From an uncultured Bacilli bacterium (GTDB lineage Bacteria; Bacillota_I; Bacilli_A; RF39; UBA660), in assembly GCA_934167825.1 (NCBI GenBank), contig CAKPLY010000001.1, positions 5,508 through 69,507 on the forward strand: 64,000 bases of DNA, written 5' to 3'. Shown piece after piece: positions 16,335 to 63,955 of the stretch (positions are counted from its first letter, which is position 1; every line of letters begins with the position of its first letter). Both the position numbers and the translations under genes were made by a program. A model generated the notes under the pieces. The model saw nothing but the letters and a program-made list of their open reading frames with translations, did not search any database and was not told where the DNA came from.

Positions 16335-16589
16335 ATGCGTGGAAAAAAAGAAGGTAGCCAACTGACTACAATTTGTAGTCAGTTGAAAATGCTTGCACCA
16401 GATGGAAAAATTAGACTAAGTGATGCAATGAATACTAAAAATATATTTAGACTTATTGAGTCTGTGCCTAGTCCTAAGGCTGAGCCTATGAAACTTTGGT
16501 TAGCAAATCTTGGTAAAGAAAGAATTGATGAAGTAAAGGAGGTATATAATGAAAGAAAGGAAATTAGAAACAATTTTAAATTTATTTGA
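16335..16589 (+). pseudogene. truncated tandem duplicate of the distal half of the Bro-N domain of the downstream gene
   Basis: LKMLAPDGKIRLSDA..FRLIESVPSPKAEPMKLWLANLGKERIDEV parallels residues about 70-125 of the 16549-17400 product; it lacks the N-terminal half. Confidence 0.5.
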
Positions 16590-17400
16590 AGGAAAAGAAA
16601 TAAGAAGTACATGGAATAGTGAAGAGGAAGAATACTATTTTAGTGTAGTTGATGTTATTGGAGCATTAACGGAAAGTTCTAGAGCAAGAAAGTATTGGAA
16701 TGATTTAAAATTTAGATTAACTAATGAAGGAAGTGAGTTGTCCGATAAAATCGGACAACTGAAAATGCAATCTGAAGATGGCAAGTATTACAATACAGAT
16801 GTATTAGATACTAAAGGAATTCTAAGACTTGTACAAAGCGTACCTAGTAAAAAAGCGGAACCATTTAAACTTTGGTTAGCAAATCTTGGTAAAGAAAGAA
16901 TTGATGAAGTATTTGATCCTGAGGTTGCTATTAATCGTGCAGTAGATTACTATAAAAAAAGAGGATATACTAATGAATGGATTAAAGCAAGATTAGATGG
17001 TATTGTTGATAGAAAGAAATTAACAGATGTATGGAAAGATAATGGTATTACATCTAATTATGAATATGGAATATTAACAAATGAAATATATAAAGAATGG
17101 TCAGGTATGAGTGCTAATGAATATAAGGCTTATAAAGGGTTAAGGAAAGAATCTTTAAGAGATAATATGACTGATGTAGAAGTTGCTTTAACAAATCTTG
17201 GAGAAATAGCAACTAGAGAACTTGCTAAAAAGCATAAACCATACGGGTTAAAACAAAATAAAAAAATTGCAAAGATGGGTGGTAATACTGCTAAGGTTGC
17301 AAGAATGGATTTAGAAAATAAGTTAAATGAATCAGTAATAACAAGTGATAATAAATTAGATTATAAATATTTAGATAATGCTAAAATAGAAAATAAATAA
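16549..17400 (+). CDS. Bro-N domain protein (DinD / phage antirepressor-like)
   Basis: N-terminal Bro-N motifs (FSVVDVIGAL.., ILRLVQSVPSKKAEPFKLWLA); 283 aa, close to the length of DinD. Confidence 0.6.
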   Translation: MKERKLETILNLFEGKEIRSTWNSEEEEYYFSVVDVIGALTESSRARKYWNDLKFRLTNEGSELSDKIGQLKMQSEDGKYYNTDVLDTKGILRLVQSVPSKKAEPFKLWLANLGKERIDEVFDPEVAINRAVDYYKKRGYTNEWIKARLDGIVDRKKLTDVWKDNGITSNYEYGILTNEIYKEWSGMSANEYKAYKGLRKESLRDNMTDVEVALTNLGEIATRELAKKHKPYGLKQNKKIAKMGGNTAKVARMDLENKLNESVITSDNKLDYKYLDNAKIENK

Positions 17401-17425: not shown

Positions 17426-17454
17426 TTGAAAATCATAAAAAATTATGATATTAT
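17426..17454 (+). promoter_or_regulatory. sigma-A promoter TTGAAA-17-TATTAT driving the leader ORF and surface-protein paralog 1
   Basis: Hexamers and 17-bp spacer seen directly. The region is near-identical to 61822-61850. Confidence 0.6.
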
Positions 17455-17528
17455 TTAGATGTATGTTAAAGATATGTGAATTAAAAAGATCCCAAATAAT
17501 TCGCAAATTTTAGAAAGGAGCCATCACT

Positions 17529-17594
17529 ATGAATAGAATAAATTTTGTAATTTATAACATTTATGCTATCGGGGGGGGGGCAATTAACATCTAA
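17529..17594 (+). CDS. 21-codon leader ORF (MNRINFVIYNIYAIGGGAINI) containing a G10 homopolymer (17571-17580)
   Basis: SD AGGAG 8 nt upstream. Conserved at 61909-61974 with an identical G10 tract and C-terminal half. Confidence 0.55.
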   Translation: MNRINFVIYNIYAIGGGAINI

Positions 17595-17618
17595 TAACAA
17601 TATAATAATTGAAAGTAA

Positions 17619-17669
17619 AACTATAGATAAAATATCTAGAAATAGATAATTTTTGTCTATAGTTTTTTC
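17619..17669 (+). terminator. intrinsic terminator between leader ORF and paralog 1 (long stem with inner UAUCUA-GAAA-UAGAUA hairpin, then T6)
   Basis: Outer arm ctatagataaaa pairs with ttttgtctatag (one G-U wobble). GAAA tetraloop. Followed by a U-run. Confidence 0.65.
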
Positions 17670-17693
17670 ATGTGTAAAAAGGAGTTTTAAAAA

Positions 17694-19796
17694 ATGAAAA
17701 GAGTAGTAAATTTTGTAGACAAGAAAGAATTAATAATAATAACAATACTTACATTTTTAATTGCACTAACAGGACTATTCGCAACGTATGCAATAGATAC
17801 TAGTTTAAGTTATAATGATACCACAGAGTATGATATGTCACTTAGTTTTGATTTATCAGCATCTACAAATAAACAAGTAACAATACCTGCAGGTAAAACA
17901 AAATTTTTTGATATAGATGTTAAAAATAGTAACAGTGGTACAATACAATATGGTATTGCATACTCTATGGTTACACCTTCAACATTACCTAATGGAGTAA
18001 CCATTGCTAAGTCTTGGAAAAGTGCAAATCCTCCAACTGGATTAATTAATGCAAACGCTACTTTGCCAGTAACAATAGCAGTAGAAAACACATCATCTAC
18101 AGATATTACAATATCTTTATCTATAATAAATGGATATGAAAAAGGTGGAGATTTAATTTTACCTAGCGGTAAAACTTTGATAACTGGTGAATTTGATGCA
18201 ACACCACCTGTAGAACCAAATGCGCCAGCATTAACAGATGCATTAATACCAATATTATATGAAAGAGATAGTATAATAATGAAAGCAGATTCAAAGGGAG
18301 ATGGAGTTACTGCTACCTGTGATAACTTAGGGGACTTAAATTTTGATGGAAGAATTGATGATAAAGATGTAAGTGCATTTTTGCCTGTTTTTCGAGACGG
18401 TTTTACTTTTCCTAATGTTGTAAAAGTATGTGCAGATGTTGATGGTGATGGTTTTGTTACAGAGGATGATATGAGGTTAATTAAAAATTATTATTATGGA
18501 GATGTGACTACTTTTCCAAAGGGTGAGCCATTGAGTACAGTAACTGGAACTGTATATATTACACCATGGTATGATTATGATAATAAACAATGGGCAAATG
18601 CAGTACTTGTAAGTGAGGCAAATAGACAGAAATATATATCCGCTGAACCTGGAACTGAAATTGCCGAAGAAGATATCCTAGCATTCTATGTATGGATACC
18701 AAGATACAAATATAAAGTATGGAATATAAATAAAGTAATAGGAACACAAAGTTATAACGCAGAAACTGCTGGTATAGATATAGTTTTTGAGGAAGGTACA
18801 AATTCTACTGGTACAATTAGTTGTACATATAGTTATGCAGCACCATCAAGTACCGCGGGAAGTCCAAACGAAACATGTACAGGAAGTAATGGGGACTATT
18901 ACACTCATCCAGCATTTACCTTTGGTAATCAAGAACTAACAGGATTTTGGATGGGAAAATTTGAACTATCAAGTAGTAATCCTACGACAGGTACTTCATA
19001 TGGTGGAGGAGAAACTACAACACTAACACCAAGAATATTACCAAATGTAACATCATGGAGATATAATACAGTATCTAACTATTGGAAAGTAATATATGAT
19101 ATGCAAACAAGTAATAATATATATGGACTTCCAACATCAAGAACAAATACTGATTCACATATGCTTACTAATATGGAGTGGGGAGCAGTAGCATATCTAA
19201 CTAATTCTAAATATGGAAGATGTACAAATGGAAGTTGTACAGAGGTATCAATGAATGGTTACGGAGAATATAGTAGATCTACAACTATGACAGGATGTGG
19301 TCCAATATCAAGTGGAAGTACAAGTTATGGAACAACATGTAATGCATATAATACAGAATTAGGGCAATTAGCTTCTACAACAGGTAATATTACGGGAGTA
19401 TATGATATGTCAGGAGGAGCATATGACTGTGTAATGGGTAATATGTCAAGGTGGAATGGAACATCATATACATATTATGAAAGAAGTGCGGGAACTAACT
19501 TTACATATAGTACAAATACTGCAAAATACCTAATACCATATGCATATGGAACAACAAGTAATAATCAAACAGCATATAATAGAGGAAGACTAGGAGATGC
19601 AACTGGTGAAATAGTAACATCTTCAGGTAATGGTTGGTATAATGACTTCGCAGGTTTTCCTAACACTGCCGGTTCTTGGTTTCGTCGCGGCGACGATTTC
19701 GCCGGTAGTAATGATGGTCTCTTCTGTTTCCTCAGCGGTGATGGCGCTAGTGACAGCAATTCTTCGGGGCGCGCCGTTTTATCCATAGCAACTTAG
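17694..19796 (+). CDS. large secreted/surface protein paralog 1: N-terminal signal anchor, internal dockerin type I repeat pair, C-terminal about 400-aa domain shared with paralog 2
   Basis: Hydrophobic N-terminus. Dockerin repeats DLNFDGRIDDKDVSAFL / DVDGDGFVTEDDMRLIKNYYYG. About 70% identity to the 62072-63955 product over the shared parts. Confidence 0.7.
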   Translation: MKRVVNFVDKKELIIITILTFLIALTGLFATYAIDTSLSYNDTTEYDMSLSFDLSASTNKQVTIPAGKTKFFDIDVKNSNSGTIQYGIAYSMVTPSTLPNGVTIAKSWKSANPPTGLINANATLPVTIAVENTSSTDITISLSIINGYEKGGDLILPSGKTLITGEFDATPPVEPNAPALTDALIPILYERDSIIMKADSKGDGVTATCDNLGDLNFDGRIDDKDVSAFLPVFRDGFTFPNVVKVCADVDGDGFVTEDDMRLIKNYYYGDVTTFPKGEPLSTVTGTVYITPWYDYDNKQWANAVLVSEANRQKYISAEPGTEIAEEDILAFYVWIPRYKYKVWNINKVIGTQSYNAETAGIDIVFEEGTNSTGTISCTYSYAAPSSTAGSPNETCTGSNGDYYTHPAFTFGNQELTGFWMGKFELSSSNPTTGTSYGGGETTTLTPRILPNVTSWRYNTVSNYWKVIYDMQTSNNIYGLPTSRTNTDSHMLTNMEWGAVAYLTNSKYGRCTNGSCTEVSMNGYGEYSRSTTMTGCGPISSGSTSYGTTCNAYNTELGQLASTTGNITGVYDMSGGAYDCVMGNMSRWNGTSYTYYERSAGTNFTYSTNTAKYLIPYAYGTTSNNQTAYNRGRLGDATGEIVTSSGNGWYNDFAGFPNTAGSWFRRGDDFAGSNDGLFCFLSGDGASDSNSSGRAVLSIAT

Positions 19797-19895
19797 TCAC
19801 TTAAGTATATAAAATTAATACTAGTAGATTAATTATACAATACTTATAGTTGATAATATCTACTAGTTTTGTTATACTTATATAGAGGTTATGTT

Positions 19896-20693
19896 ATGGA
19901 ATTTAAGAAAGTATACGTAGAAGTTACTAATAGTTGTAATTTAAGTTGTGATTTTTGTATTAAGAATGATAGAAAGATTAAGTTTATAAATAAAGATGAA
20001 TTTGAAATAGTGTTAGATAAGTTAAAAGATGTTACTAAGTATTTATATTTTCATGTACTTGGGGAACCTTTGATGCATCCTGATATTAATTATTTAATAG
20101 ATAGAGCTAGTAATGTAGGATATAAAGTTAATATTACTACTAATGGGTATTTGATAGATAGAATTAAAGATAATAAGAATATTAGACAGTTAAATATTTC
20201 TTTACATAGTTATAATACTAAATATAATATAGATATAGATGAGTATTTAAGTAATATAGTAAGAGTAGTAGATAATTTAGTTAAGGAAGGTACTATTATT
20301 AATTATAGATTATGGGTAGATTATAAATATAATGATTATATATGTAAGTATTTAAGTAAGTATTATGATGTAGAAATAGATGGTAGTAGTAAAAAGATAA
20401 GTAATAATATTTATATAGATAAAGATAGTTCTTTTATATGGCCTGATTTAAATAATAATTATTATAATTCTAACGGAAGATGTTACGGACTTATTACTCA
20501 TTTTGGTATATTAGTAGATGGTACTATAATACCTTGTTGTTTAGATAGTAAGGGTATAATTAATCTTGGTAATATATATAAAGATAATATTAAAGATGTT
20601 ATGGAAAGTGATAGGGTTAAGGATATGATTAGGGGTTTTAAAAATAATAAAAAGTGTGAAGAATTGTGTAAACATTGTAAATTTTTAGATTAA
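19896..20693 (+). CDS. radical SAM enzyme with C-terminal SPASM/twitch domain (putative peptide-modifying maturase)
   Basis: CNLSCDFC (CxxxCxxC) at the N-terminus. SPASM-like GTIIPCCLDSKGIINLGNIY...ESDRV plus C-terminal CEELCKHC. SD agagg precedes the ATG at 19896 (ORF track start 19869). Confidence 0.65.
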   Translation: MEFKKVYVEVTNSCNLSCDFCIKNDRKIKFINKDEFEIVLDKLKDVTKYLYFHVLGEPLMHPDINYLIDRASNVGYKVNITTNGYLIDRIKDNKNIRQLNISLHSYNTKYNIDIDEYLSNIVRVVDNLVKEGTIINYRLWVDYKYNDYICKYLSKYYDVEIDGSSKKISNNIYIDKDSSFIWPDLNNNYYNSNGRCYGLITHFGILVDGTIIPCCLDSKGIINLGNIYKDNIKDVMESDRVKDMIRGFKNNKKCEELCKHCKFLD

Positions 20694-59625: not shown

Positions 59626-61794
59626 ATGAATAAAGAAATATTTAAATTAAATTTTAGGGGAAAAGAAATAACTGTAGAAAATGGACAACTTGCTAAACAA
59701 GCTGATGGTGCAGTACTTGTAAGATATGGAGATACTCAAGTTCTTGCGGCATCTGTAATGAGTAAGAATGCTTCTACTGCAGATTTCTTCCCACTTACAA
59801 TAAACTACTTAGAAAAACTATATTCAGTAGGTAAAATACCTGGAGGATTTATTAAAAGAGAAGGAAGACCTACAGAACAAGCAACTTTAGCATCTCGTTT
59901 AATAGATAGACCTATTAGACCATTATTTGCTGAAGGATTTAGAAATGAAGTACAAGTAGTTGCTATGCCTTTATCAGTAGATCAAGATTCTACTGTAGAA
60001 ATGACTGCACTTTTCGCATCAAGTTTAGCACTAATGATTAGTGATATTCCTTTTGATGGACCAGTAGCAGGAGTAGTAGTAGGAAGAATTGATGGTAACT
60101 TTGTAATTAATCCTAGTGCTAGCGAGTTAGAAAATAGTGATATAATCTTATCAGTTGCAGGAACTAAAGATGCAATTAATATGGTTGAATCTGGAAGTAA
60201 AGAAGTAAGCGAAGAAGATATGGTTGATGCTTTAATGTTTGGTCACGAAGCAATCAAAGAACTATGTTTATTTGAAGAAGAAATAACTAAAAAGATAGGT
60301 AAAGAAAAAATAGCAGTAGAACTTAAGACATTAGATAAAGAGTTAGTTAGTGAAGTTGAAGAGTTTGCTAGAGAAAAGATGTTAAATGCTATTCAAATTA
60401 AAGATAAGTTAGAAAAATATGCTGCAATAGATAAGGTAAAAGAAGATACTGTATTAGAATTTTCTAATAGATATGAAGGTAATGAAGAAGTTGAGGCAAT
60501 ACTTAAAGATGTTAAAACTATTACAGATAATATTGAAGCAAACGAAGTTAGAAGACTCATTACTGAAGAACATATAAGACCTGATGGTAGACAAATGGAT
60601 GAAATAAGGGATTTATCTGCAGAAGTTGATTTACTAGCAAGAACTCATGGTTCAGCATTATTTACTCGTGGACAAACTCAAGTTCTTTCTATTACTACTT
60701 TAGGTGCTTTAGGAGAGCATCAAATTCTTGATGGACTAGGTATAGAAGATGAAAAGAGATTTATGCATCACTATAACTTCCCAGCATTCTCAGTTGGAGA
60801 AACTGGAAGATATGGTAGTCCTGGAAGAAGAGAAATAGGACATGGTGCACTTGGAGAACGTGCTTTATCACAAGTAATACCAAGTGAAGAAGAATTCCCA
60901 TATACTATTAGAGTAGTAAGTGAGGTATTAGAAAGTAATGGTTCATCTTCACAAGCATCTATTTGTGCTGGTTGTATGAGTTTAATGGCTGCAGGTGTAC
61001 CTATTAAAAGACCAGTTGCAGGTATTGCTATGGGACTAATTACAAAGGATGATAAATATACTATTTTAACTGATATTCAAGGACTTGAAGATCACATGGG
61101 AGATATGGACTTTAAAGTAGCAGGAACAAGAAATGGTATTTGTGCATTGCAAATGGATATAAAAATTAAAGGTGTAACTAAAGAGATATTAAGTGAAGCA
61201 TTAGCGCAAGCTAAGAAGGCAAGATATCAAATACTTGATGTTATGGAAAAAGCAATTCCTGAACCTAGAAAAGAATTATCTAAGTATGCTCCAAAGATTG
61301 AAACATTAAGAATTAATCCAGATAAGATTAAAGATGTTATTGGTCGTGGAGGAGAAATGATTACTAAGATTATCTTAGAATGTAGTAATGTAACAAGTGT
61401 TAATGATAAAAATGCTGTTAAGGTAGATCTTGAAGATGATGGTAGAGTACTTATCTATCATAATGATAAAGAAATTATAGAAAAAACTAAAAAGATGATT
61501 GAAGATGTTGCAAGAGAAGTAGAGTTTGGTAAAGTATATAATGTTAAAGTTGTTGATATTACTGACTTTGGTGCTTTTGTAGAACTTTGGCCAGGTTGTG
61601 AAGGATTAATACATATATCACAACTTGATACTAAGAGAGTAGAAAAAGTAAGTGATGTAGTAAAAGTTGGAGACGAATTACTTGCTGTTGCTACTGGATA
61701 TGATAAAAAAGGTAAGTTAAATCTTTCTAGAAAAGAATTACTTAAAGAATCTAATACTCCAAAAGAAGAAAAAAAGACTGAAAGTGAAAATTAA
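59626..61794 (+). CDS. pnp: polynucleotide phosphorylase
   Basis: Two RNase PH domains, KH and S1 domains, and an acidic C-terminal tail. Confidence 0.95.
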
Positions 61795-61821
61795 TTTTTT
61801 ACTTTTTTTCTTTTAAATCTA

Positions 61822-61850
61822 TTGATAAAACACTAAAGTTATGATATTAT
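61822..61850 (+). promoter_or_regulatory. sigma-A promoter TTGATA-17-TATTAT (copy 2 of the leader control region)
   Basis: The spacer and -10 context match those at 17426-17454. Confidence 0.6.
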
Positions 61851-61908
61851 TTAGATGTATGTTAAAGATATGTGAATTATCACAGATTCTAGAAAGGAGC
61901 CCCTCATC

Positions 61909-61974
61909 ATGAATAAATTAAATTTTATGAATTATAACATTTATGCTATCGGGGGGGGGGCAATTAACATATAA
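61909..61974 (+). CDS. 21-codon leader ORF copy 2 (MNKLNFMNYNIYAIGGGAINI) with G10 tract at 61951-61960
   Basis: Same SD, G10 tract and C-terminal 12 codons as at 17529-17594. Confidence 0.55.
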   Translation: MNKLNFMNYNIYAIGGGAINI

Positions 61975-62000
61975 AAATAATATATTAACAAAGAATATAA

Positions 62001-62049
62001 CTATAGATAAAATATCTAGAAATAGATAGTTTTTGTCTATAGTTTTTTT
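62001..62049 (+). terminator. intrinsic terminator copy 2 (same nested hairpin, T7)
   Basis: Near-identical to 17619-17669. Confidence 0.65.
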
Positions 62050-62071
62050 GTGTAAAAAGGAGTTTTAAATA

Positions 62072-63955
62072 ATGAAAAAAGTAATAAATTTTGTAGACAA
62101 GAAAGAATTAATAATAATAACAATACTTACATTTTTAATTGCACTTACAGGACTATTTGCAACGTATGCAATAGATACTAGTTTAAGTTATAATGACACC
62201 ACAGAGTATGATATGTCACTTAATTTTGATTTATCTGCATCTACGAATAAACAAGTAACAATCCAAGCAGGCAAAACAAAATTCTTTGATATAGATGTTA
62301 AAAATAGTAATAATGGTACAATAAAGTATGGTATTGCATACTCTATGGTTACTCCATCAATTTTACCTGATGGAGTAACTATTGCGAAGTCCTGGAAAAG
62401 CGCAAATCCTACAACTGGATTAATTAACGCAAATGTTACATTACCAGTAACTATCGCCGTAGAAAACACGTCATCAACAGATATCACAATATCATTATCT
62501 ATAATAAATGGATATGAAAAAGGTGGAGATTTGATTGTACCTACTAGTAAAACTTTGATAACTGGTGTATATAGAGTAGGGCCACCTCCAGAACCAAATA
62601 CTCCTGTATTAACAGATGCTTTAATACCTGTTACTTACAATGATTCTACTTCAACTTGGGTGAAGGCAGATTCGACAAACAATAATAATTCGTGGTATAA
62701 CTATAAAAACAAAATATGGGCAAATGCAGTATTAGTATCATCTACAAATCGTAGTACATACCAGTCTGCAAGTGCAGGAACAACTATAGCAGACGTAGAT
62801 ATCTTAGCATTTTATGTATGGATACCAAGATATAAATATAAAGTATGGAATAAAGATAAAATAATGGGTACACAAAGTTATAATGCACAAACTGAAGGTA
62901 TAGATATAGTTTTTGAAGAAGATATTGATTCTACTGGTACAATAAGTTGTACATATAGTTATGAAGCACCATCAAATACTGCAGGAAGTCCAAATGAAAC
63001 TTGTGCAGGAAGTAATGGAAATTACTATACTCATCCAGCGTTTACTTTTGGTGATCAAGAGCTAACAGGATTTTGGATGGGAAAGTTTGAATTGTCTAGT
63101 AGTGATCCTGCGACTGGTTCATCATATGGTGGATCATATAGTACTACACTAACTCCAAGAATATTACCAAATGTAACATCATGGAGATATAATAATTTAT
63201 CAAGTTATTGGAAAGTAATATATGATATGCAAGTAAGTAATAATATATATGGACTACCAACCTCAAGAACAAATACCGATTCACATATGCTTACTAATAT
63301 GGAGTGGGGAGCAGTAGCATATCTAACTAATTCAAAATATGGAAGATGTACAAATGGAAGTTGTACAGAAGTATCAATTAATGGTGCATGGGATAATAGT
63401 GATGGTGGTTCTAACTATTATACGTATTATACAACAAAAACTGGTTGTGGTCCAATATCAAGTGGAAGTACAAGTTCTGGAACAACATGTAATGCATATA
63501 ATACAACATTAGGACAAATGGCATCCACTACAGGTAATGTATATGGAATATATGATATGTCCGGAGGTTCAGATGAATTAGTGATGGGTAATATATCAAG
63601 TGAAAGTGGAATATCGTATACATATAATGCAGGTTACACAGGTTCTTACTTTACATATAGTACAGATACAGCAAAATATCTAATACCATATGCATACGGA
63701 ACAACAAGAAATGACCAAACAGCATATAATAGAGGAAGACTAGGAGATGCAACAAGTGAAGTAGTATCTAGAGCAAGTTATGGATGGTATAGTGATAGTG
63801 CTAATTTCCCTTTTAGTAGTGAGTCGTGGTTTAAACGTGGAGGCACTTTTTATTATGATTCTGGTATAACTGGAATTTTTACTTTTACTGCAGAAGGTGG
63901 TGCTGAGGGATTTGAACATTATTCAACCCGTGCTGCTCTCTCTATAGCAAACTAA
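62072..63955 (+). CDS. large secreted/surface protein paralog 2 (no dockerin insert)
   Basis: The first 160 aa are nearly identical to paralog 1, and the C-terminal domain is shared (YVWIPRYKYKVWN, THPAFTFG.QELTGFWMGKFELSSS, MLTNMEWGAVAYLTNSKYG); ends RAALSIAN. Confidence 0.7.
   Translation: MKKVINFVDKKELIIITILTFLIALTGLFATYAIDTSLSYNDTTEYDMSLNFDLSASTNKQVTIQAGKTKFFDIDVKNSNNGTIKYGIAYSMVTPSILPDGVTIAKSWKSANPTTGLINANVTLPVTIAVENTSSTDITISLSIINGYEKGGDLIVPTSKTLITGVYRVGPPPEPNTPVLTDALIPVTYNDSTSTWVKADSTNNNNSWYNYKNKIWANAVLVSSTNRSTYQSASAGTTIADVDILAFYVWIPRYKYKVWNKDKIMGTQSYNAQTEGIDIVFEEDIDSTGTISCTYSYEAPSNTAGSPNETCAGSNGNYYTHPAFTFGDQELTGFWMGKFELSSSDPATGSSYGGSYSTTLTPRILPNVTSWRYNNLSSYWKVIYDMQVSNNIYGLPTSRTNTDSHMLTNMEWGAVAYLTNSKYGRCTNGSCTEVSINGAWDNSDGGSNYYTYYTTKTGCGPISSGSTSSGTTCNAYNTTLGQMASTTGNVYGIYDMSGGSDELVMGNISSESGISYTYNAGYTGSYFTYSTDTAKYLIPYAYGTTRNDQTAYNRGRLGDATSEVVSRASYGWYSDSANFPFSSESWFKRGGTFYYDSGITGIFTFTAEGGAEGFEHYSTRAALSIAN

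Follow-up and report, generated by a model that had tools for sequence, protein, structure and literature searches.

What would a run of ten guanines do in a short open reading frame (ORF) that separates a promoter from the gene for a surface protein? The question is raised by a 64,000-nucleotide (nt) stretch of DNA from an uncultured Bacilli bacterium (GenBank assembly GCA_934167825.1, contig CAKPLY010000001.1, positions 5,508 to 69,507), which we call the window and number from its first letter. The region at 61822-62074 of the window holds, from 5' to 3', a promoter, a Shine-Dalgarno (SD) sequence, a leader ORF with ten consecutive Gs (G10), a hairpin followed by a run of Ts, a second SD sequence and the ATG of the gene for a 627-amino-acid (aa) protein. 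A near-copy of this control region is found at 17426-17693, upstream of a paralog, and we refer to the two regions as copy 2 and copy 1, respectively. From their conservation in related sequences we think it likely that these regions are phase-variable attenuators, in which the length of the G tract would set the reading frame of the leader ORF and thereby the expression of the downstream surface-protein gene.

Anatomy of the control region and its near-copy

The elements of copy 2 and the gene behind it are:

61822-61850 (+): predicted extended -10 promoter, TTGATA (61822-61827), 17 nt, TATTAT (61845-61850), 10/12 matches; the TG of the extended -10 is at 61842-61843
61896-61899 (+): SD sequence of the leader ORF, GGAG, 9 nt 5' of its ATG
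61909-61974 (+): leader ORF as read with G10, the short state; it has 21 codons and a TAA and encodes MNKLNFMNYNIYAIGGGAINI
61951-61960 (+): G10 homopolymer, slippage-prone, which sets the frame of the leader
61961-62029 (+): extension that is in frame only when the tract is G9 (or G12); its 22 sense codons are followed by a TAG (62027-62029) within the hairpin's 3' arm
61999-62049 (+): predicted intrinsic terminator, a 20-pair AT-rich hairpin (61999-62044) and T7 (62043-62049); -18.5 kcal/mol, z = -5.2
62059-62062 (+): SD sequence of the main gene, GGAG
62072-63955 (+): paralog 2, 627 aa; N-terminal transmembrane (TM) helix, beta-sandwich and conserved C-terminal domain that contains Cys

The original prediction, made from the letters of the window alone, had proposed the promoter, leader ORF, G10 tract and terminator of copy 2, and every element is present at the coordinates that it gave. 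The tract is part of a separate 21-codon ORF with its own SD sequence, 3' of the extended -10 promoter, 101 nt downstream of the -10 box and 112 nt upstream of the ATG of the main gene. The tracts of the two copies (61951-61960 and 17571-17580) are the only runs of at least eight Gs in the window, which has a GC content of 26.6%; the number expected by chance is 0.05.

Tract length determines where the leader of copy 2 stops. With G10 the stop codon is the TAA at 61972-61974 and with G11 the TAA at 61965-61967, leaving 24-25 nt and 31-32 nt, respectively, to the first paired base of the hairpin. A G9 tract lengthens the leader to 39 codons and moves its stop to the TAG at 62027-62029, in the inner 3' arm. 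The equivalent frame of copy 1 ends at a TAA (17647-17649) in the inner 3' arm as well, so the -1 frame is open into the hairpin in both copies, as had been proposed. The prediction had also described 30 nt between the leader stop and the hairpin that differ between the copies and have the same length. The difference in sequence and the equal length are real, but the 30 nt include the stop codon, and the actual gap is the 24-25 nt given above.

The corresponding features of copy 1 are:

17426-17454 (+): predicted promoter, TTGAAA, 17 nt, TATTAT, with TG, homologous to the promoter of copy 2
17529-17594 (+): leader ORF, encoding MNRINFVIYNIYAIGGGAINI, with G10 at 17571-17580
17617-17668 (+): predicted terminator, a hairpin (17617-17666) and T6 (17663-17668); -20.3 kcal/mol, z = -6.7
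17694-19796 (+): paralog 1, which is 700 aa long, has a dockerin insert and shares 55% overall identity with paralog 2

An alignment of the two control regions, which the original prediction had proposed as a check, contains no indel between the leader ATG and the T-run. The most diverged part is the stretch of approximately 30 nt that follows AAC AT, between the short stop and the hairpin. Further upstream, 41 nt are 100% identical in the two copies (17443-17483 and 61839-61879), from the -10 box into the early 5' untranslated region, and a 17-nt indel lies just 3' of this block. Directly 3' of the leader SD, both copies have a C/U-rich run that is complementary to the G tract (61900-61906, GGAGCCCCTC; 17520-17526, GGTGCCCTCTT).

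The hairpin is much more stable than expected from its composition, and none of 200 shuffles of copy 2 (0/200) folds as well. A simple terminator scan, which demands three G-C pairs, found nothing, and terminators were assessed instead by folding and by a relaxed scan. The relaxed scan showed what terminators at gene ends look like in the window: AT-rich hairpins with energies of -8 to -12 kcal/mol and a T6-T7 run behind them. The leader hairpins belong to this class and are stronger. The hairpin with its T-run is also the sole consensus structure of 21 aligned modules. A search of the window against Rfam 15 gave no match at the gathering score and two chance-level matches (E ~0.8) in 61780-62110, and a similarity search of phage DNA with the module gave no match. 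The G tracts and the hairpin go far beyond what chance would produce, which cannot be said of the open -1 frame of a single copy.

Frame geometry and tract length in related modules

Relatives of the control region were collected by a protein search, a genome scan, a metagenome scan with the hairpin motif and contig look-ups. We designate the related loci or contigs by L-numbers (L005, L112 and so on), and the main sub-types of module are the window type and the L005 type. Among the sequences collected, which come from gut metagenomes and metagenome-assembled genomes (MAGs), are 27 distinct leader-hairpin modules whose G8-G10 tract is intact. In our reading of these sequences it is the related loci, and not the two copies in the window, that settle the conservation of the read-through geometry.

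In 27/27 distinct intact modules, exactly one of the three frames after the tract stops inside the hairpin. Among the 24 modules of the window and L005 types, this long frame reaches its stop at +66/+67 or +75, counted after the tract, and both others stop no later than +13. The layout is identical in three more distant relatives (L037, L055 and L057; 30-41% protein identity), whose hairpins are unrelated in sequence and in which the other two frames stop by +22; L037 and L055 have T7 runs after the hairpin. When distinct codon types are counted over the window-type and L005-type copies, stops make up 0/66 in the long frame and 21/125 in the other two (Fisher P = 1e-4), and this avoidance of stops is directly observed.

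Length changes are also consistent with a frame that matters. The window type and the L005 type differ by indels of +10 and -1 nt, a net change of 9 nt that keeps the frame, and four of the five leader indel events upstream of the tract are multiples of three. The leader SD is kept as GGAG or GGTG in all aligned modules, and the only change of the leader start codon is from ATG to GTG, in L114. From the conserved SD and start codon and the in-frame indels, we infer that the leader is translated.

The original prediction had argued from the two window copies for selection on the read-through geometry. That conclusion is borne out by the 27 modules, the avoidance of stops and the indels, although the two-copy argument is weak and, taken alone, not significant. 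The prediction had also set two observations against itself, namely a long frame that stops before the hairpin and a tract of fixed length. The first was not seen in any of the 27 distinct intact modules, and tract length does vary. G10 is the commonest state, G9 is found in L087, L088, L091, L096, L098 and L112, and L092 has G8CC. Long-state modules number 7/27 and short-state modules 20/27.

Between samples, a given module or syntenic locus can differ solely or chiefly in tract length, with G9 in one assembly and G10 in another. L087 (G9) and L095 (G10) have zero mismatches and one gap over 247 nt, L088 (G9) and L093 (G10) are 98.8% identical over 566 nt, and the flanks of L086 (G10) and L096 (G9) are 99.4% identical over 9.5 kb. 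At the locus syntenic with copy 1 (GNAT, Bro-N, module, paralog, radical SAM, FtsW), the window, L113 and L114 have G10 and L112 has G9; in L112 the 39-aa long leader is annotated as a gene. Two modules on one contig can also be in different states (L097a long and L097b short; L083 short and L092 long), which fits the idea, raised with the original prediction, that paralogs might be turned ON and OFF in combination.

Other members of the family have G8-G11 tracts in other places. In L063, L073 and L077 the tract is in the promoter spacer (TTGACA...G9...TATAAT), and in L008, L016, L072 and L081 it is within the first ~15 codons of the main ORF, where it is out of frame in the assemblies in 4/4 cases. 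Since G tracts are found in promoter spacers and main ORFs too, phase variation appears to be a trait of the whole family, with the leader ORF as one of three solutions. Across L102, L103 and L104, an identical 618-aa protein (P0037) is found behind a plain promoter and, on another contig, behind an L005-type G10 switch; in the plain context it follows an AI-2E transporter gene, with neither leader nor hairpin.

Some modules have decayed. L089 (8906-9133) and L101 (4397-4624) retain the hairpin and have lost the tract; the leader of L089 stops 2-5 nt 5' of the hairpin, and L101 also lacks the leader start codon. In L085 (821-1047, minus strand) the G tract is lost, with TTTAAGAGGGATAATTAC in its place, and the leader is fixed in the long frame, with 43 codons to a TAA in the hairpin. 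We considered L085 as a clean "locked-ON" natural experiment and downgraded it: the downstream ORF is a chimera of NUDIX and pyruvyl-transferase sequences, and L085 is therefore a rearranged remnant.

A proposed switch and its alternatives

We postulate that the module works as follows. Transcription would begin at the extended -10 promoter, and a ribosome would load at the leader SD and translate the short ORF with the G tract. Slipped-strand mispairing during replication would alter the length of the tract and thus the frame of the leader. With G10 or G11, the ribosome would be released 24-32 nt before the hairpin, the hairpin and U-run would form, and most transcripts would end early (OFF or low expression). 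With G9 or G12, translation of the 39-codon ORF would carry the ribosome to a stop in the 3' arm of the hairpin, its footprint would cover the rest of the arm, and RNA polymerase would read through (ON). Cells within one population could then switch between the two states and, because each paralog has its own tract, the two genes could switch independently.

Several points weigh against this proposal. When the tract-hairpin segment is shuffled, the frame in question stays open with P = 0.15-0.25, and the whole geometry of a single copy recurs in 28-48% of shuffles (P = 0.28-0.48). The two-copy argument is therefore weak alone, and related sequences were needed. Shuffle tests of single lineages are weak as well (P = 0.2-0.5 each), and a lenient product of these probabilities over five lineages is only ~0.02. 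The hairpin has no compensatory double substitutions in the 21 aligned modules, because it is nearly invariant (~92% identical across module copies), and its conservation could come from another constraint or from gene conversion. Given the lack of covariation, the structure rests on its energy, on one-sided changes that keep wobble pairs and on the non-homologous hairpins of relatives; in the alignment of the 21 modules there are 13 cells in which a change on one side leaves a standard pair, mostly A-U turned into G-U, and 4 cells in which a mismatch or a one-sided gap removes the pair. Homopolymer lengths taken from metagenome assemblies may contain errors. Ribosome-mediated antitermination needs coupling of transcription and translation, and this coupling is weak in Bacillus subtilis. 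Lastly, L057 has a hairpin that lacks a T-run and whose base is paired with GAAAG in the SD of the main gene, which means that the output is not always termination.

This last point bears on a different output for the same leader switch. The hairpin could act after transcription, by blocking initiation or coupling or by altering mRNA stability, and be melted by a ribosome in the long frame. The hairpin of L057 (3247-3360) has 30 pairs, and the 120-nt fold has an energy of -44 kcal/mol; the G8 frame stops in its loop. L057 looks like a translational, SD-sequestering version of the switch. In the window copies, the stop of the long frame is only ~43 nt 5' of the main ATG, which would also suit a post-transcriptional effect. 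However, a T6-T8 run directly after the hairpin is nearly invariant in every window-type and L005-type module, the main SD is unpaired in the predicted folds of the window copies, and the hairpins resemble the genome's own terminators. We therefore regard a post-transcriptional output as unlikely for the window copies.

The commonness of the geometry among single-copy shuffles raises the possibility of coincidence or hitch-hiking, in which the 5' region would have been duplicated recently, the tract would be a neutral mutational hot spot, the ORF spurious and the open frame a matter of ancestry. The modules are indeed related by duplication and perhaps by gene conversion, as the near-identity of their hairpins suggests. 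But stop avoidance is confined to the long frame even though no part of the module has diverged more than the spacer, the indels keep the frame, and the SD and the start codon are conserved, the latter through a change from ATG to GTG. The layout is kept, moreover, in relatives with unrelated hairpins, and the AT-rich window has no other long G runs. For these reasons we find coincidence improbable.

Could the G tract act without translation, by pairing with the C/U-rich run or with the U-rich 3' arm in a pyrG-like manner, or by pausing or transcriptional slippage? RNAfold pairs the G run of copy 2 with GCCCCUC beside the leader SD, and the alignment has a C/U-rich run 3' of the leader SD in all window-type and L005-type modules. 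This pair is missing from the consensus fold, copy 1 has only a weak C run, and L037, L055 and L057 have none. In pyrG the poly-G tract is at the transcription start, and the window tract is elsewhere. Translation-independent models also leave the avoidance of stops and the frame-preserving indels unexplained, and we consider them very improbable. Neither a trp-like antiterminator nor pyrG-like pairing of the G run is supported by the consensus fold.

That the small ORF makes a functional peptide in 21-aa and 39-aa isoforms, with the tract toggling the peptide and not the downstream gene, is hardly credible despite a good SD and the conservation within the window type of YNIYAI, the peptide end before the tract, since leader peptides vary freely between copies, share nothing across lineages and are always encoded beside a downstream surface-protein gene.

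The regulated family and comparison with known systems

The attenuator that we favor would control members of a large family. The protein search found more than 7,700 relatives of the regulated protein, all metagenomic, and the genome scan placed them in uncultured gut MAGs titled Bacilli, Tenericutes, "Mycoplasma sp. CAG:611", "Clostridium sp. CAG:762" and similar. Identity between paralogs 1 and 2 is 85% in the N-terminal 200 aa and 72% in the C-terminal 419 aa. In the AlphaFold model, whose mean pLDDT (predicted local distance difference test) is 42.6, only the TM helix (residues 10-40) and the beta-sandwich (44-150) are predicted with confidence. The regulated protein has no relative in PDB and no NCBIfam family, and an exact-protein look-up of paralog 1 returned no record. 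The conserved C-terminal domain has invariant cysteines, and FGE-sulfatase matches are weak and limited to 4/20 family members. Most genes behind the module encode this C-terminal domain with varied N-terminal architectures (600-1,230 aa), and a few encode other TM-anchored proteins.

Two genes adjoin copy 1 and paralog 1, and both are syntenic in L112-L114. A gene for a Bro-N domain protein (16549-17400) is directly upstream of copy 1; phages and mobile elements typically encode this domain. Directly 3' of paralog 1 is a radical SAM/SPASM gene (274 aa, 19869-20693). A maturase relationship between its product and the regulated proteins is conceivable, because the latter have invariant cysteines and faint similarity to FGE-sulfatases. 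The last ~150 nt of paralog 1 (19650-19790) have a GC content of 52-54% and encode a C-terminus that ends in SWFRRGDDFAGSNDGLFCFLSGDGASDSNSSGRAVLSIAT; the 3' end of paralog 2 lacks this raised GC content.

We lean towards the view that the promoter, poly-G leader ORF and terminator form a portable cassette of ~230 base pairs that has spread before dozens of genes for membrane-anchored surface proteins throughout a low-GC lineage of uncultured gut Bacilli. If this is true, the cassettes would amount to a system of combinatorial surface variation of the mycoplasma kind, and to the first case of leader-peptide attenuation built on a homopolymer. Within the family the tract is seen in three placements (promoter spacer, leader ORF and main ORF), and there would be two outputs (a terminator and an SD-sequestering hairpin). 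Ribosome-dependent antitermination would then operate in this lineage. We would predict extensive surface heterogeneity in abundant uncultured Bacilli of the human gut, which bears on immune evasion, phage resistance and strain-level metagenomics. There is also a warning for annotation: besides ORFs and promoters, the length of a G tract in a 5' leader might decide expression.

The switch resembles several known systems. Homopolymers that vary in an ORF or a promoter spacer cause phase variation in Neisseria, in Campylobacter, in Haemophilus and, with the vlp genes, in Mycoplasma. The use of poly-G, slipped-strand mispairing, surface proteins and independently switching paralogs would be common to those systems and the one proposed here, and the family members with tracts in the main ORF or the promoter use the classical placements themselves. 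The window tract differs in being neither in the regulated ORF nor between -35 and -10. Classical homopolymer phase variation is also treated in the discussion of a study of pilus switching in Streptococcus gallolyticus (PMC3894217).

As in amino-acid operon attenuation, which the same study cites (PMC3894217), the position of a ribosome on the leader would decide whether the terminator forms. There are two differences from the amino-acid operons. The module has no alternative antiterminator hairpin, its consensus fold being the terminator hairpin only, and it would sense no charged tRNA: its input would be a heritable change in DNA length. In the trp and his leaders of E. coli, it is likewise ribosome position on the leader ORF that decides terminator formation. 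The cwpV and flgB genes of Clostridioides difficile have phase-variable 5' leaders that are switched by site-specific DNA inversion. They too set the ON or OFF state of a Firmicute surface or motility function after initiation, in the 5' leader, and cwpV does so through a terminator. Unlike the module described here, they rely on DNA inversion, without a repeat tract or a leader ORF. Phase variation of flgB is mentioned in PMC8890394.

The closest counterpart is the switch of the pil1 and pil3 pilus operons of S. gallolyticus, in which GCAGA repeats are part of a leader ORF upstream of the operons (Danne et al. 2014, PMC3894217). Expression is low when the leader is short and its stop codon precedes a stem-loop terminator by 39 or 33 bp; out-of-frame changes in repeat number give a longer leader that stops within or after the hairpin, a ribosome is thereby brought onto the terminator and blocks it, and expression is high (PMC3894217). 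The effect needs translation, that is, the start codon, and the terminator, and it also works in Lactococcus (PMC3894217). Our literature search found phase variation by a leader peptide and a premature terminator documented in this one species only (pil1, pil3), and it found neither a poly-G leader version nor phase variation in RF39-like Bacilli.

In the two systems the parts follow one another in the same order: promoter, repeat-bearing leader ORF, spacer, stem-loop terminator and structural genes. In both, the short leader stops tens of nucleotides early (39 or 33 bp in pil1 and pil3, 24-25 nt here), the frameshifted long leader stops within the hairpin, and the genes specify surface structures of a Firmicute; switching is stochastic there and would be so here. 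The short-state leader stop in S. gallolyticus is at least ~28 nt upstream of the terminator (PMC3894217), and the G10 gap in the window is slightly shorter than in that work, yet outside the reach of a terminating ribosome. By its structure the window element thus appears to be of the pil1 type, and the mechanism itself would not be new in kind.

The differences from pil1 concern how the switch is built and how far it has spread. The repeat here is a G10 homopolymer in place of 13-22 copies of GCAGA, and only one of the three frames is long (ON). The leader peptides are unrelated, without sequence similarity, so the module would be a mechanistic analogue and not a homologue. One relative, L057, swaps the terminator for an SD-sequestering hairpin, and the cassette has multiplied before many paralogs in many species of uncultured gut Bacilli. 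What is new, judging from these comparisons, is a poly-G, multi-copy form of the pil1-type switch in uncultured gut Bacilli. We suspect that a poly-G build of pil1-type logic points to a general and easily evolved route by which genes could become stochastically expressed.

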